Below are positions 9,345-52,100 of a stretch of DNA of 64,000 nucleotides, one piece after another. The DNA is from Podarcis vaucheri (Eukaryota), in NCBI GenBank assembly GCA_965113315.1, contig OZ220369.1. One strand, given 5' to 3'. The position numbers were made by a program, and so were the translations under genes. The notes beneath the pieces are model-generated. The model was not told where the DNA came from. It was given only the letters and a program-made list of their open reading frames with translations, and searched no databases. Each line of letters starts with the position of its first letter. Position 1 is the stretch's first letter.

Positions 9345-9679
9345 CCTGCGGGGAAAGCAAAAGAAGAGGGAGAGAGGTGGTTATGGTGGGTTAGGACTGG
9401 CCGTGGTGGCAAAAGACATCCTCACACCTCCGGGAAGGAAAAACACATTCCCACTCCCGGCTCCCCAAATGACAGGCAGCTCAATCCTAGCCTCAGGCGA
9501 GAGCCAAAGAGGGCGATGATCCAATCACAGAGGAGGAGTAATAAAATAAGAAAGGATTAAGTCATTCTTAACACTTTCATCACTTCACTAACTTGATTTG
9601 GGGGTCAAATACTCTCCAGTTTAGTCACAATTAAAAAAACACAGAGATTAATTTAACCATGACTCCCGGTTCATGTAAT

Positions 9680-27899: not shown

Positions 27900-29950
27900 G
27901 AGAGGGGGTGTCCTTTTTTATGCAATATTTTCATAGCCAACTTTCGCATAAGTTAACTTCAGTTCTAAAAAAAAATAAACAAACAGCCATTTCTTTTTTT
28001 CCCCCTCTCCCCTTAAATAAAAGTGCAATCGACACGCAATTCACAGTGCAAGAAGCAAAAACAACAGTGCAACATCCCAGACTCACACACACAAAAGCAA
28101 AGCAAGATTGCAACAACGCCAACCCCGCTCCCCCCCAAAAGCACAAAACCCCAGAACAAAGCAAAACACCCCTTTTCAGGTGCCCCCGGTTCCCCCCTGG
28201 GCTGCCTCTCCAACACTCTCAAGACAGTTTTTTTTTTATTATTATTAAAATTTGCAGACAAAAGGGGAAACAAAAATGGCAGCCTCGCTTATTTTTAAAA
28301 CAGAAACGGGGACGCCATATTCTGCAGATCTGCAAAAAAGGGAGAAATCGGAAGCTTCGCCTGGACTCCGAGAGGGGAAGAAGAGAGGAGGAAAAAAAAA
28401 ATTTCAGGCAGCCGCAAAACTAGAAAGTCGGAGGGGGGAAAAACGGGAGGAAAAAAAAAAATTAAGCTCCTTTTTGCCCTCGCCTTTATTTGCATTAAAT
28501 CATTGTTGGCCGGAGGTCTTTTTGCACCAAAAGGGGTGTTTTGTTTTATTTATTTATTTAACGTATTATTCTTAATAATCTTTCCCTCTTTTGAATAGCC
28601 CGGCTTTTATTTATTTAAAAAAAAAGACACTTCCTATACCAATACACATGCTCCGCTTGCAAATTGCAACCCAAGCCAGAGATCCGTCTGCAAAGGAAGA
28701 AAATGGGCACCCCCGTTTCGCTTCCTCTTCCTCGCCTCCTCCTCCTCCTCCATCTCCACCCGCCCAACCTTTAGTTACGTCGGGGGGGGGCGGAATAAGG
28801 AGGAGGAGGAGACGACCGGCGAAAGGGGGGGGACACACACCGGGAAGACAGTGCCCCCCCGCACGATCTCCGGTGCAGACCTGCTGCAAATGCGCGCATC
28901 GAATTTGCAAACGCACCCTCTCCCCCCCCTTTGCAATCTTAGCCTGAAACTGACATGCATTTGCAGAAAGCCACAGAAGGAGAGGGGGAAAAGCATGCGG
29001 CGTTGCTACTGAGCTGCAACATTTGCAATCTAGCCCCTTCTCTCCCCCCCACTCCACAAATTTAACCCCACCACCCTCCAACCTCGCCAATCCTTGCTTG
29101 GAGCTGGCCTGGGAGAGCGCGTCCGCCTCTCTGCCCTTTCCTCCATAATAACAGAACACAGTAATCGGAAGAATACACACCTTCGATTGCAGAGGTTTTG
29201 GCAAACGTGGGGCGCTTTTAATGCAAATAGACATGAGGCGAGAGTATAAATATCTAGAGATAAAGACGGGTAATAATAGAGCCACTCAAGTCTTATCAGG
29301 AGGGGGGGCAAAAAGGAGTGGGGTTTTTTTTAACACTCCCCCCCTCCAAAAAAAAAAAAGGATAACACTCCCTACCAGGGCGATCTTGGGAAGTTCAGTC
29401 TCTATAGCTTGGGTTTTTTTTTCCTCCCCCCCCCTCCCCGCCGAGTGCTTATAAAGCTCAGTTCAAATCTTCCGGGTCGGCCTGGAGTTCACTTCTGGTT
29501 TTTGCAACAACCCAAGCCAGCCAGCCGGAGGGTTGCTTTCTATGAGGTCCGAGCGAGCAGCAGAAGGGTTTTTCCTCTTGCGACCGATTCTTCCTTCCGC
29601 CTCCAAAAATAAAATGCTTTTTTAAAGAAAACTTGCTTTTTAAAAAAACAACAACAGAAAACCTCCCTATTCTTTTTGATCGTGTTATTTTCTTTTCCCC
29701 TTTTTCCTGCAATCTTTTTTTTTCTTTCTTCCTTGGTAGTTGTGTGCTAAAAGATTCACTTCTTGCGAGAGAGTTTCCAAAAGGGGCAGATCCAGGAGAG
29801 GCGAGGGAAATGGGGGAGGGAGTTTTGGAAAAGAAAACATTGGGGTGGGGTGCAGAGGGGGTTTGGTGGGTGGCGGAGGGGGGGTGTCTTGTGGGTTTGG
29901 CTGGCTGCAGAATGTGCCCAGACATTGCTTGCTAGGCACAGAACAAGAGA
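27900..29950 (-). promoter_or_regulatory. ZNF362: Probable ZNF362 promoter and first non-coding exon(s): CpG-retaining, homopolymer-rich region
   Basis: High CpG retention, no recognisable interspersed repeats, YY1-like AAAATGGCAGC (~28273), octamers ATTTGCAT (28488-28495) and ATGCAAAT (29221-29228), candidate minus-strand splice sites (~28944 acceptor, ~29180 donor). The exact TSS cannot be determined. Confidence 0.65.
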
Positions 29951-30751
29951 TGGGCTGGCTTACGAGCCTGTTTCCTCCACCCACTGATTTTTATTTTATT
30001 TAAAAAGCAGATTCCTAATCATCTCTCCCCCTCCCCAAACACAACCCCCAGCACCAAAGTTGCCTTAGGCAACTTTGAATTTCCAATATAAATTCATAGG
30101 CACCTCCCTCGCAGGGGAAAATAAATTAAAGGGTGTGCTGGTTAATTCAGGAAGGCCCGTGGCCCTGGAATCCCTCTTTATCTGGGAGCAAGCAGCACCG
30201 CAAAATCAAAAGCACGGAACTGTAGAGTTGAAAGGAGTCCCCAGGGGTCATCTAGTCCAACCCGCTGCAAATGCAGGAATCACACCTTTGAGTTGCTTTT
30301 GTTTCTAATAATATGCAAAGGCTACTGCTTGTCTAGCCAGGCTTCTACTCTGGATTTGGGGTAGATGGGAGGTAAATCCTGAACTCAGGACCAGGTCATG
30401 TGATGGGTGACATCTGCAGCTCCACAGGGTGTCTGGCTCTGCTGTCCCCTAAAGAGCACTTTGCTCTGTAAGTGTGCCTACCCCGGATGAATGTTGTTTC
30501 GTCTAGATTAATATACAGTACCTCCTTTGATTCACAAGATCTCAGGGTGCCTCACAGGATTAAAAATACAAAGTAAAAAACCAGTAAATAAAGCAAAAGC
30601 AGAAACAGTAACCCCTGTCCCACAAACACATTTTTAAATAATGTAGAATATTTAATTGGCCTTACAAAAAACACACACAACAGAAATACAAAATATAAAT
30701 TAACATATAACACTTAAGAACAATTTAAAACAACCTCAGCCTTCCCAAATA

Positions 30752-30920
30752 CCGTATTTTTCGCTCTATAACACGCACCCGACCATAACACGCACGTAGT
30801 TTTTAGAGGAGGAAAATCCGTAGGCATGCCACCCGTAGGCATTTCCTCCATAACACGCACAGACATTTCCTCTTACTTTCTAGGAGGAAAAAAGTGAGTG
30901 TTATGGTGCAAAAAATACGG
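30752..30920. mobile_element. Tc1/mariner-type MITE family C, short variant
   Basis: TA|CCGTATTTTTCGCTCTATAACAC...GCAAAAAATACGG|TA. Confidence 0.85.
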
Positions 30921-31360
30921 TAATTCAGTTTTTTCTGCCAGATGTTCTTGCTGTCAGCTGAGACTTAAGAATAAAATTGCCAGGCTGTTAATTTTGGAAA
31001 TAATACGTCCCCTCTTGCCCCCCCATGCTATGCCCCTGTTGGGAAGACCGTTCCATAGAGAGGGAGCCACCACTAACAAGGCCCTTTTGTTAAAACTCCA
31101 GCTGTCATCAGCCTCAGCCAGCATGCCCAATAGACAAGGATGATAGGAGATTTAGTCCAAGACCTGGGGGACACCAAATTGGGATTATACACAACCTCCA
31201 TCAGCTGTATTTCACCTCTTCCTGCTTTGTATGGGTCATTTCAAAATGGCAACAAGTGTCACTGGCTTCTATGAGTGGGATCCTCTCACCTCTCTGGGTC
31301 CAGAAGTGGAATTGGGTGGGGTGGGGGACACCCAATGAGGACTGGCCCATTTAATTATTA

Positions 31361-31922: not shown

Positions 31923-34362
31923 CTCTATTTGTGCTGATAAATTGCCATATGACTACAGTAATGCACCATAAATCAGTGTTTCCCAACCTTTTTTGGGCAA
32001 AGGCACACTTGTTTCATGAAAAAAATCTCGAGGCACACCACCATGCCAGATGGGGAAAGGTCACTTTTTACTTATGTAAAAAGAAATAAAAAAATAGTAA
32101 CAGCATAGAAGGTAATGGTTAGGCTAGCATCCCTCTTCCAAATATGCTAGGTTTTTATTTGCAGGGACTGTTCTACATGGGAAAGCATTCAGCACTGTCA
32201 TTCTCCCATCTGCCATCTGAATTGGTACTATTCTGGGTCAACTTACTCTGCTGCATGTGTAGATGAAAATGGCACCAAGTGTGGGGGAGGGGGCAGAACA
32301 GGTTTCAGATACAGGATATTAAGCATACATGTACTTCAGATTGAACTGGTTGCTTGCTTTGCAAGTTTTCATTTCCCAAATGACTGCCTTGGCAAGCGCA
32401 ATACCTACCAGGCTCAACGCCGTTCTCGCGCTACCGCTTCCCGCGCTCTCAAGGACCCGGGAGGAGGAAGGCGTGAAGGCAATCCCAAAGGTGCGAAAAC
32501 CTTGCGCATGCGCAGGCCTTCCGCCTGCGACAGCCCAGTAGGCCGGCCGAAGCGAGCGGCGATGGGATGTGGGAGGGAGCTCGCTCGCCGCCCCGCGTGT
32601 GCCTATGTGGGGCACGTTACAGCCCCGTGACGTCAGCGCCACGCAGGCAGCCAGGCAGGCAGACGGCGAGAGCCCCGCGCTGGGCGGCCTCTCCTCGCCG
32701 CTGCCGCCCGCCTCTCGCCGCCCGACTCGCCCGCCTCCCTCCCACGGCACACCAGGCAACGTCTCGCGGCACACTAGTGTGCCGCGGAACACTGGTTGGG
32801 AAACACTGCCATAAATTAATCCCAGGACAGGGAGTGAGAGAGAGTGACCAGACAAGCTTTACAAGCTCATCCCAGAGACCTCTGCCAAAAGAACAAGAAG
32901 GGACCAGGCTGGGAATGGGTGGTATCTCTCCGCCCGTCTCTCACCTAGGCTCAGAGTCAGACCAGTTGCAGGCGACAGCAGCCTCGCTGGATAGATCATT
33001 GGCTTCGTACCAATCAGCTCATTCTCCATAATGGAGAAACCCATGTTCAGGTTTGAAAACAATGTCTATCTCACTGTAGTCTCCATCTTCTTACAGCTTC
33101 AGCTCACTCTAGCAGCAACCTCAGGTGATAAAGCAACAATAGGGCTGCTGCTAAAATGGACCCCCCTGAGAAACAAGAGGGAACGATCCACACACACAAA
33201 CAGCTCAATGAGCACTGGGTGTTCTCAGTACCCAGAGAGTGCTAGCTGTCAGCTGGAAAAGGAAAACAATCAGCAGGATGGAACGGTATCTGGGAAATGG
33301 GCATGGCCAGCCGGCTGGCTGGCTCCCTGGAGTATTATTGTCAGGAGGTGAAAATATACTGCAGCAATTCATCATGCCTTGGGGCACATCCACATCACAT
33401 ATTTATAGCAGCACCATGGCATTTTAACCAGTCGTGGCTTTCCCCAAAGAATTCTAGGAGCTGTAGTTTTGTTAAGGGTGCTGAGAGTTGCTGGGAGAAA
33501 TCTCATTTCCCTCCGAGAGCTACAATTCTCAGAGAGGTTTAACTAGGGTTGCTATATTTCAATAAGTAAGAACCAGGACACCCCAAAAATTGTGTCCGGG
33601 TGGGAATTCTAGCTCTGTGAGATGAATAAGGGTTTCCCCACAACTCTCAGTAAATACCCTTGACTGTTAAAGTAGTGTAAGAGTGTGGCCAGTTTTCTCT
33701 TCCCTTTGTCCTTCATTTGGTTTTGGAAAAGCTTTGTCCCAACATTTTGCTGAAAGCTTTTTCCTACTTAGCTGGGTGCTTTGTTCCTAATTCCCCCTCT
33801 GCAATAGTCTGGCTTGTGCCGAGCCAAAAGTCAGGAGGATAGGTGTTCTTTGGATTTTGGATTGACTCTCTCTGTATGTGATCATCCCATAACCCGGTAG
33901 CGGCCATTCAAAAGCAGCTGGGCAAGTTCTAGCTTAGCATTGGAAAAGAGCTACTAATTTAATAATGGATGCTTGGTTGGAATGAGTCCTCATGGAAAAC
34001 TGTCAAAGCAATTTGAAGTTTTCTTTTCATTTTTTTTAACCCACAAAGGTCAAGGATGTTTTTGAGAAAACATGGCCTGTGTTTATTCAATACACTAGAA
34101 AGGGCAATGCAACCATGAAACCACCAGCAGCTCATGGTAGCCTCTCAAACCACCTATTCAGATGAGAAAAACAATCTTCTGCAACCATTTAACACCCCAA
34201 CATGTAAACCCATTCCCAGCCTGGTCCCTTCTTGTTCTTTTGGCAGAGGTCTCTGGGATGAGCTTGTAAAGCTTGTCTGGTCACTCTCTCTCACTCCCTG
34301 TCCTGGGATTAATTTATGGTGCATTACTGTAGTCATATGGCAATTTATCAGCACAAATAGAG
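31923..34362. repeat. 155-bp perfect inverted duplication: left arm 31923-31973 + 32817-32920 (split by the hAT element), right arm 34208-34362
   Basis: Reverse complement of 34208-34362 matches the joined left arm base for base by eye. Confidence 0.93.
31974..32808. mobile_element. Young non-autonomous hAT (Charlie-like) DNA transposon, 835 bp
   Basis: 15-bp TIRs CAGTGTTTCCCAACC / GGTTGGGAAACACTG; exact 8-bp TSD CCATAAAT (31966-31973, 32809-32816); subterminal palindrome GCGGCACACTAGTGTGCCGC (32766-32785); no transposase ORF. Confidence 0.92.
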
Positions 34363-43113: not shown

Positions 43114-49020
<5,907 letters not shown>

Positions 49021-49028
<8 letters not shown>

Positions 49029-49125
49029 CTTTCTCTCTGCTGGGCACAGCCGCTTCCGCTTCCGGCGTCAGCAGCGCTTCCGCTTCCTGTGCCGTCAGTA
49101 ACAGAAAAAATAGGAAATGGCGAAA
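49021..49125 (-). promoter_or_regulatory. LRRC47: LRRC47 CpG-island core promoter: tandem ETS/GABPA sites and YY1 motif overlapping the start codon
   Basis: GCCGCCATCTT (YY1 consensus) at 49021-49031; CGCTTCCGCTTCCGG and CGCTTCCGCTTCCTG at ~49051-49090. Confidence 0.75.
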
Positions 49126-52100
49126 TGTCCTATACTGTATAGTCTTATGAAGTGGGCGCAGAAAAGCGGGCGGACGTGTGTGTGGCGCATATGGGTGATA
49201 TCCTTAAAAAAGATTTGATTGTAATTTTAAATTTATTTCCCGCCATTCAGCAGGCCCCAGCGCGTTACATTTTCAAATGTAGAATTCAGAAGTAAAAATA
49301 TTACGTGAAAAGCATGTAGATACGGGACATCCAGTTGCCGCTTCCCTTGCTCATTTGCACGGTAATACAATGAAGAGGCCGCTCTAGCCCAACATCCAAC
49401 TTCCATGGTATCTTTATGGTTGTCTGCATAGGTTGCCCCTCACCGGATGTAAACCGCCCTATACTAAAAACTCTATGGCTGTCAAATAAACGAAAACGGT
49501 GCGCCCGAAAGGATAGCGGGCAATCACATCGGGCTTCCTGCGTTTCCTTTTATGTTTGATTGGAATTAACCGAGGAGCTGATTTGCAATTGCCATAACAA
49601 TCAATTTAAATTAACACTGTTTGTTATTAAAATTCAATAATTTTGTGTGTGAAAATAATCATTCATTTAAAAGTGCCCAAAGCACATTCTGTGATTCTCT
49701 ATATGGTGGTTTGTCCATATAGATATGGTCCGAGTGGTCTGCGTACTCTGAAGAAATGTCTGCCGAATGGTGGCTATCTGAACTGCCTCCCTGATGCATG
49801 CAGGGCCCAATTCAAAGTGCAGGTGATGAAACAACGGCTCAATAAGCCTGGATGTATCTTTTAAAAAGCCTTCAGGCCCATGTCCCACTATGTCAGGGAT
49901 TGGGCAGCTATGGCCATCCAGATGTTGCTCCATTCCAGCTCACTCCAGCCTGATCACAGAGATACCAGTGATCGGAGTTGCAGTCCAATCTCTGGAAGAC
50001 CACAGGGACACAGGAGGCTGCCTTATGCCAAGCCAGAAAGCTTGTCCATTGCACATAGTTTTTACTGACTGGCAAAGGTTCTCTGGGATCTCCAGACAAG
50101 GATCTCTGGTTCCCAAACCTTTTGTCCTACCCATCCATTCCATCTTTTGAAAGTTGATGGGTGTTTCATCCGACCACTTAGCAAACTTTTGCTGTTGTAG
50201 TACACATCAAAGCACATGCATACATGTTATAAAGTTTACACCCAACTAATATTTTAACAACTAGTCTTGCCTTTCTAATGGAACAGATGCACCCCTTTTT
50301 AATGGATGAGAAACTCAGTTCTATAATGTACTATATGGGAGCAGGTATTACCTTTCAGTTAACTCCATCCTGTGAAACCCTTACCAGCACATAGCTATCT
50401 GTGGCCAATATAATAATGAAACAGGAAGAGTTGGCTAGATTGCATCCAATGAAAAACACAAATGCAGCTGACAGAATGTGACCAATAAAAACTATGTAAT
50501 ATACAAGTGATACTATTTAAAAAGCCACAGATTTTCATCTGGCTTAAAAACAAATGTTTTTTCCTTAAGTGCTGGCATCATTGTCAAAAATCAGTGCCAT
50601 GTCAGTAGTCCTTATTAGCTTGAAATTTTGGCCCTGATCAACACAGACTTGATCTTTGTTGTCCAGTAAAATAAATCAAGTGCTGAGCCAAACACCAATG
50701 TTCTCAAATGTTTGCAAGTTTGTTGTGGACCACCTGATATCATCAAAGGTCCACAGACCACCTCTGCACTACCTGATCTGCACTATGCTACGGACTTCAA
50801 CATCAGCTGAAAATGCTGCCCAAAGCTTAACTTCTATGCGCAAATCAGACCCACAAGGCTAAGCAGAATTCTTAGCTGCTCTTCTCTGTGGAATTCCCTT
50901 CCTCTGGAGATTCACCCAAATCTGAGCTTGTGTGCCTTTTCTTTAAACAGTCCAATTTTTAATATTTTTATTATAGAATTGGGCTATGGTGGCAAGGACA
51001 GGGCAGAGCATAACCAGTACCAAATCTTTGGAATGGGGGACTACATATAGAACACAATAAACACAGAAATAAAGATATATTTCAAAAAGAGAAAAAGAAT
51101 CACTACCACTCCTTGTTGAAATATAGACCTTTATTATCAGAGCAGTACAAACCTGTGTGCAAGTTGATGTAATAAAAGGAGTGCAAAACTCTGGAATCAG
51201 GCCTGCTATCCAGCAATTTGCTCATTTCCTACAAAACCATACAGCATGGCTAAGTTGCAACATGGCAAGCTATCCAACTTAAGTCTTGAAAACCCCAACT
51301 GAAGACGTGTTGGCGCCAGCTCCCTTAGATGAGCCTCTGACTGGAGACTGGCTTGGTGGGGAGTTGCAACAAACCTTTGCCCCAGATTGGGGAATCTGAA
51401 GGGCAAGCACACATCTTGTGCACCTAAAGATATCCTGCGTTGGAAGTTTTCTCCTGCAAACACGTTTCCCTCCTTAGAGATAACTCGGTTATTTCTAGCC
51501 AAGGTCACCAAGATCCTGTGATTACACAGGAAGGTGTACAGGAAGGCATGTTAATGCAGGAAAAGGGATGACACTCAGGGGTAAAAAAACAGGGGTATTT
51601 AATCTGTATCCCACTGGCTGTTCTCCCAACCCCACCCCTCCACTGGCTTTTTTTACCTGTTATATGCAAAACAGGCCTGGTTTGGGTCAAAGCAGTGAAC
51701 GGGGGTTCTAGGTGCATGCGCAAGTGGGCTCCCCGGCTGCTTCTCTCCTGCCCCAGGATTCCTGTTCTTCAGCAGACAAAAGGGTTGGGAACTTGCATTT
51801 GCCAATGTAACTTCTTGTTCTGCCCTAAACAAGCCAAAGGACAATCCAGGCCTTTGTTTGGGGAAACATCCACCTCCCCTCCCCTTCTGTGTTTCCATCT
51901 GCCCCTTTCAGCAGCAGCTCATGTGCATCATGACCCACAGCATCGTATCTGTGGCCTGGGATGGGCCAGGGCTGAGGGCTTCAAGAGGTTCCAGTACAAG
52001 GCTTGACTTATGGTAGCTTCCGTGGGGATGGAACAGGGTTGAGAGGGGCTCAGATAAGGAGGTGGAACGTGCAGGGCACGTTCCGCAGCTGTTACAGTGG

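Follow-up and report, generated by a model that had tools for sequence, protein, structure and literature searches.

The window, by which we mean the whole stretch of 64,000 nucleotides analysed, carries the exons of a ZNF362-like gene on its minus strand. The first coding exon found lies at 9345 (a peptide-motif search for a first coding exon of ZNF362 gave none), and the likely 5′ end of the gene is a CpG-rich stretch 2.7 kb away from an 835-bp hAT element, so that the placement of this element ~2.5 kb upstream of ZNF362 in the initial annotation does not stand as worded. Elsewhere in the window there is another small inverted-repeat element at 30747–30925, with 32-bp arms matching at 84%, and a CpG island at 48251–49250 that holds a leucine-rich-repeat first exon on the minus strand. 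The features of the locus are as follows.

28501–29250, minus strand: CpG-rich stretch, the putative and likely 5′ end of the ZNF362-like gene
31966–31973, plus strand: left target site duplication (TSD) CCATAAAT, found as a single copy in the inverted empty-site copy at 34312–34319
31974–32044, minus strand: 3′ end of the hAT, terminal inverted repeat (TIR) and subterminal part, common to transposase-coding copies (98.6% over 71 bp to L163)
32045–32382, minus strand: AT-rich host DNA captured from G000:C10:110497168-110497573, ~55 bp of it lost by an internal deletion
32383–32410, minus strand: 28-bp piece from a transposase-coding parent (matching L191) with splice donor CTG/GTAGGT, last exon base 32409
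32411–32639, minus strand: CpG-island piece captured from G000:C18:81751474-81751696, where it lies upstream of a TFDP1-like gene; read opposite to this gene
32503–32514, no strand assigned: NRF1 site, in the donor too, palindromic here only via a CpG C>T change at 32503
32628–32635, no strand assigned: CRE TGACGTCA, in the donor too
32640–32742, minus strand: GC-rich segment A, common to many members of the clan of related elements
32743–32808, minus strand: TIR plus subterminal palindrome forming the 5′ end of the hAT, common to transposase-coding copies and to 1430 further places with the same 5′ end but a different interior
32809–32816, plus strand: right TSD CCATAAAT, paired with 31966–31973
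34208–34362, minus strand: inverted copy of the empty insertion site, 155 bp, 100% identical, unique to the locus

The element (31974–32808) is bounded by 15-bp TIRs, CAGTGTTTCCCAACC at 31974–31988 and 32794–32808, that are 100% complementary, and by an exact 8-bp TSD on both sides, just as first described; lacking a transposase, it is non-autonomous. The distinction originally drawn between its two halves also holds, with no CpG in the 351 bp of the AT-rich left half (GC 0.41) against 50 in the right half, where GC is 0.70 and the observed-to-expected CpG ratio (O/E) is 0.99, compared with 0.35 for the window. The CRE and the GC boxes, of which the element has four, were likewise recovered. 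The NRF1 motif had been called a perfect palindrome: the site is real, while the palindrome itself is a product of CpG decay, since the nearest sister copy (L002) has C where the window copy has T32503, and the palindromic form occurs in none of 17 copies sampled regardless of similarity, the majority form still being an NRF1 site. In 5000 dinucleotide shuffles of the CpG half an NRF1 site arose 24 times, a CRE five times and both together never.

The 155-bp inverted copy of the empty insertion site lies 1.3 kb downstream of the element and nowhere else in the genome, and the single CCATAAAT that it holds confirms the TSD. It is likely to be a young duplication of the repair type that either predates the insertion or was copied from an empty allele. 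The possibility that this arm is the TIR of a larger element was ruled out, all three of its matches being this same locus.

A whole-element search of the genome (G000, 1.61 Gb) returned 1724 candidates, and the 40 that were scored are all full length at 98–100%. The TSDs of 30 fetched copies are exact 8-bp repeats in 28 cases and have one mismatch in the other two, with TA at positions 4–5 in 29 of the 30. The diagnostic 3′ junction has 642 matches, a figure that is not itself a copy number: half of the first 30 are plain 835-type copies (813–842 bp) and the other half carry other cargos or are rearranged. Applying this plain fraction to the 642 matches gives an estimated family size of roughly 300–400 copies.

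Copies diverge from the family majority by 1.1%, and CpG sites decay faster than other C/G positions. Across 15 copies, CpG transitions stand at 3.9% per site versus 0.35% at other C/G positions, an 11-fold difference (leaving out L106 and L125, whose interiors differ; with both included the values are 4.1% and 1.2%), and in the 30 best matches at 2.9% versus 0.23%. The window copy has six CpG transitions; it differs from L002 at two positions, both CpG transitions, one of which creates the palindrome, and its sole private change is a CpG transition. The earlier impression that the CpGs are undecayed is thus not confirmed as worded. The 11-fold faster CpG loss indicates that the copies are methylated, and judged by this decay the family is young and methylated; the methylation is a property read from the family, the window copy itself being too young to judge. 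The copy beside ZNF362 is likely to be a silenced passenger.

The initial annotation had proposed comparing the interior with the genome, and this comparison, run with patterns avoiding the element's own junctions, matched both the CpG and the AT-rich pieces to host loci devoid of TIRs. The CRE-block pattern has 17 matches, namely 16 TIR-bounded siblings and one TIR-less locus on C18 (L069), which aligns to 32411–32639 over 230 columns, with 92% identity for the window copy and 94% for the family majority, and holds both the NRF1 site and the CRE. There is no TIR and no native transposon sequence within 1.5 kb of L069, and the piece sits inside a wider CpG island, between minus-strand exons matching PF00999 (Na/H-exchanger) and PF08781 (DP; E 9.5e-5, below the curated cut-off). 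From peptides and synteny we take these exons to belong to TMCO3 and TFDP1, and the piece lies 0.9–1.7 kb upstream of the likely TFDP1-like first-exon donor. The AT-half pattern has seven matches: five longer parents (967–996 bp), one sibling and one TIR-less locus on C10 (L083), which is 98% identical to the AT half over ungapped blocks of 117 and 189 bp. One TIR-less donor per half among the TIR-bounded copies (1/17 and 1/7) supports capture from the host. A single donor supplying promoter, exon and intron to both halves was rejected, as the C18 match stops at 32411 and the surrounding 40 kb contain no match to the AT half. A clan member (L152, G000:C10:110491001) lies ~6 kb from the C10 donor, by chance or as a trace of nearby capture.

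Other members of the clan, which have the same ends, carry other cargos. The 155 loci examined include 143 TSD-bounded elements, whose cargos, after masking of native parts and known donors, form 13 clusters; eight of these 13 (two of the eight overlapping) are island-like, that is, they reach GC 0.55 and O/E 0.65 over their whole length, compared with 4 of 212 flanking control pieces of 800 bp, in a non-random sample drawn by pattern matches, several picked by GC-rich motifs, that favours well-amplifying cargos. A SIX-domain/homeodomain first exon on C26, which we take to be SIX5-like, is a TIR-less donor that is 94–96% identical over 860 bp to 4 of 30 sampled copies; one copy with this cargo (L085, G000:C26:10777770 onward) is broken by an apparent LTR retroelement. 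Five loci of a 1.45-kb sibling (L139, L143, L149–L151) carry a promoter, 5′ UTR and first exon that resemble those of UBE2G1. In an abundant 1.4-kb family (L034, L060 and 18 others) a CpG island, an ATG exon and a GT donor are found with a CRE block at the end; a search for the donor of this cargo gave no match in the genome, and its host origin is judged from its appearance. A 1.05-kb family (L093–L102) has segment A twice in inverted order together with an AT-rich capture, and all ten matches in the search for a segment A donor are TIR-bounded members of this family, none of them a donor. The native-type 5′ region of four loci (L134, L135, L148 and L152) contains a motif that we presume to be CTCF-like.

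The transposase-coding partners of the element, 15 copies in all (16 matches, one copy being split), share its short TIRs. Eight of the 15 have an open frame of 626/627 amino acids with all five motifs typical of hAT transposases, including DDE, CxxH and RW. The only Pfam match of the transposase is a Spin-doc zinc finger, while its relatives include DUF4371-bearing proteins named ZBED5-like or SCAND3-like. Among named transposases the nearest, at 98%, is that of Podarcis muralis, and close relatives occur in a frog (85%), a snake (89% over 88%), a spider (87% over 70%) and a tunicate (83% over 88%), a distribution at 83–89% that would fit horizontal transfer.

Three of the 15 copies (L190–L192, ~4.0 kb) carry element positions 1–429 at 85–91%. 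Positions 765–835 also align to transposase-coding copies, whereas positions 430–764 have no match there and come from C10; the element is thus no simple deletion derivative of an autonomous hAT. The initial annotation had set against its own reading an interior taken from the 5′ region of an autonomous hAT, methylated and silent. This describes the CpG half, which is present in transposase copies and belongs to a family with methylation-type CpG decay, but not the AT half. The original proposal that the element had captured a host promoter fragment is supported as to host capture; the CpG piece, however, was inherited from a transposase-coding hAT, and the two halves come from different contigs. 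The GT donor of the 28-bp parental piece is kept in 15 of 17 copies.

The relationship between the transposase gene and the host island extends beyond this piece. In 14 of the 15 transposase copies the start codon is immediately preceded by the 218 bp that follow in the C18 island, with a pyrimidine tract and an AG, so that a host-derived splice acceptor opens the transposase exon in all 14. The two C18 pieces adjoin in the host (81751474-696 and 81751697-914) and are split in the transposon by 0.5–1.6 kb of other DNA. L193 alone is without C18 DNA, having a 569-bp 5′ end with an O/E of 0.54 versus 0.79–1.01 in the others, and in a tree built on residues 1–220 of the 15 copies and eight relatives it falls lowest among the copies of this genome, with weak support (80/75 and 84/85). 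In the 11 youngest of the 15 copies the CRE/NRF1 block persists in fragments only, the CRE is gone and other CpG-rich pieces have been added, and in L187 and L189 the module next to the NRF1 site is repeated 5–6 times. The first 600 bp are island-like (O/E 0.79–1.01) in all 13 copies with a measurable outer 5′ end, as is the corresponding sequence of L188, measured from its inner TIR only. L163 and 13 further transposase copies have an internal second 5′ TIR of 35 bp, ~377 bp before the ATG, which directly precedes the second C18 piece and could define a shorter mobile unit.

RNA reads bear on whether the captured DNA is used. These came from a related sample, organism A, not from this individual, and are mostly 95–99% alike; there were two bulk runs, of which 12% each was read, and a single-cell run (X21), and none is known as germline. 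X1, which is RNA by guess only, was left out of the expression evidence. Sense depth over the transposase frame is 17–49 and 31–79 in the two bulk runs, with antisense below 3; immediately before the captured acceptor it is down to 0.6 and 1.6, and the same step is seen on L182. The host-derived acceptor is the entry to the transposase exon. Among the loose ends listed at this acceptor, 16 X21 reads carry the transposon version of the CpG exon's end, joined to the transposase exon from a donor at the position equal to 32409 of the window, although the reads come from another copy. In this run the CpG block is thus an upstream exon in some copy; among the listed joins it appears in one of the three RNA runs only, the single-cell library. 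The spliced CpG exon has a 1-bp deletion found in non-autonomous relatives and not in L190–L192.

Most of the listed loose-end reads, 41 from X24 and 77 from X21 (118 of 134), derive from a different exon outside the transposon, for which there is no exact match in G000 and one weak match with four errors in 199 sequences. Their entry into the transposase exon, at L182:4804, suggests exon trapping by a copy absent from the assembly. No joint from the GT donor of L182 itself is among the listed loose ends, and no transcription start was seen in the RNA of organism A, so any promoter activity of the captured block is something we infer. Depth over the C18 block is 2–6 per strand for all hundreds of copies together (reads less than 92% alike uncounted), indicating that most copies are quiet.

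These data give some room to an alternative in which the captures are real yet the CpG block is neutral, transposase expression being confined to copies that have landed in a host gene, whose transcript is trapped by the captured acceptor. The dominance of the other upstream exon would be expected under it, as would the 53 of 59 X24 reads that carry alleles of one copy, the loss of the CRE from the youngest transposase copies and the depth of mostly 0–5 over the 5′ CpG region of L182, outside the parts common to many copies. Nevertheless, the 16 listed reads splice the CpG exon itself, and an island-like 5′ end in every measurable copy, with the repeated modules of L187 and L189, exceeds what loss would predict. 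We therefore consider neutral cargo rather unlikely, and favour a role of the captured island at the 5′ end of the transposase gene.

For the host gene, the expectation is different. The captured exon and its GT donor share the minus strand with ZNF362 and point toward the gene from upstream, and both NRF1 and CRE are intact in the window copy; by analogy with HelibatN3 a chimeric ZNF362 first exon is possible, and bat Helitrons with a captured NUBPL promoter are described, in the portion of that report drawn on here, as driving such transcripts (PMC4778049). Set against this are the 11-fold CpG loss of the family and the CpG transition as the only private change of this copy, the low RNA depth over the C18 block of all copies together, and the very recent insertion of what is one copy among hundreds, two differences from its sister. 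It is thus improbable that the copy is an alternative promoter or enhancer of ZNF362, and because the family is methylated any effect of the element on the gene is unlikely.

The direction of transfer matters to the history of the element, and although a similarity of 92–96% between donor and copies does not by itself give that direction, it is highly improbable that the C18 stretch is a stranded transposon piece that joined the TFDP1 island, as it is without TIR or native transposon sequence nearby, is unbroken in the host and broken in the transposon, is embedded in a wider CpG island and is absent from L193 and from plain deletion derivatives, while in the SIX cargo, which is plainly a cut host exon, the clan is seen to capture from its host. 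With capture from the host as the preferred reading, we propose that horizontal transfer brought in the family, its 5′ end at that time CpG-poor, and that it would then have gained ~770 bp of the TFDP1-like island, read by the transposon opposite to TFDP1, via template switching in gap repair. The capture junctions, with 0–4 bp of microhomology, and the new cargos, beginning 89–253 bp inside the 5′ end, are consistent with such a mechanism. The 835-bp form may have arisen when most of the parental interior was swapped for the C10 piece and then trimmed, and repeated switches 90–250 bp in from the 5′ end, within the GC-rich tract or shortly beyond it, would have produced the sibling families with other islands.

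Overall, the element is probably a non-autonomous hAT of the Buster type that combines two pieces of host DNA: a CpG half derived from the host island that its parent carries at the 5′ end, where it likely serves as promoter and first exon, and an AT half that goes back to a second capture, on another contig. The copy beside ZNF362 is likely methylated and silent. A wider proposal, to which we give an even chance, is that a horizontally acquired cut-and-paste transposon swapped its own promoter for a host housekeeping CpG island and splice acceptor and kept remodelling it from host pieces, its non-autonomous offspring acting as island collectors that have scattered about a thousand promoter/first-exon copies of several genes in the lizard genome.

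The case bears on how a transposon from a distant species comes to be transcribed in a new host. The presence in one genome of the donor locus, a parent without it, intermediates and expressed copies makes promoter gain by a DNA transposon directly testable, and hundreds of young identical CpG islands at scattered sites offer a natural test of how islands stay unmethylated.

Buster/Charlie hATs have 8-bp TSDs with a central TA, TIRs that start with CAG and ZBED5/SCAND3-like transposases. The present family resembles them in its TA-centred 8-bp TSD, CAG-start TIRs and 626-aa transposase with a Spin-doc finger, but differs in that the 5′ region of 14 of its 15 transposase copies has been rebuilt from host DNA. 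Pack-MULEs draw on multiple donors per element. In rice, GC-rich sequence is reported to be preferentially duplicated by them (PMC5861414, from excerpts). The GC-rich bias and the several donors in one element are shared with our clan, although the rice elements, as characterised there, are non-autonomous members of the plant Mutator superfamily.

Among the animal Pack-TIRs of Tan et al. (2021, PMC8277862), as excerpted, hAT is the commonest carrier (208/370), and four multicopy cases are given for reference genomes, a frog example having three copies. Host sequence likewise lies between TIR-transposon ends here, whereas single cargos are present in tens to hundreds of copies and the transposase-coding element has cargo as well; the clan thus departs from the picture given there of multicopy Pack-TIRs as rare in vertebrates. 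In hobo_AC of Anolis (Novick et al., PMC3014272) the filler is genomic DNA with old transposable element fragments, another case of lizard hATs, autonomous or not, taking up genomic DNA and recombining, although the excerpted account names none of the donor, CpG-island bias or use in transposase expression described here. The HelibatN3/NUBPL Helitrons of bats (PMC4224331, PMC4778049), in the passages available, prefer gene 5′ ends and have amplified a promoter and splice donor to thousands of copies; these too are vertebrate DNA transposons amplifying captured gene 5′ ends, but they belong to the rolling-circle class, and their captured promoter drives host chimeras and not their own enzyme. 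Mammalian LINE-1, an autonomous element that has changed its CpG-island promoter along the lineage with tandem motif repeats (PMC5381506), offers a parallel in promoter turnover and in those repeats; it is a retrotransposon, and the excerpted text names no host locus as donor, whereas the donor of the present island persists in the lizard genome.

In the literature searched by title and abstract we found no earlier case in which an autonomous TIR transposon uses a promoter captured from its host. Measured against these partial sources, hAT capture in lizards, Pack-TIRs, promoter-biased Helitron capture, GC-biased Pack-MULEs and LINE-1 promoter turnover are already known, and what sets the present case apart is the extent to which a cut-and-paste element has captured islands in multiple copies, together with a transposase transcript that makes use of captured host sequence while its donor is still present.
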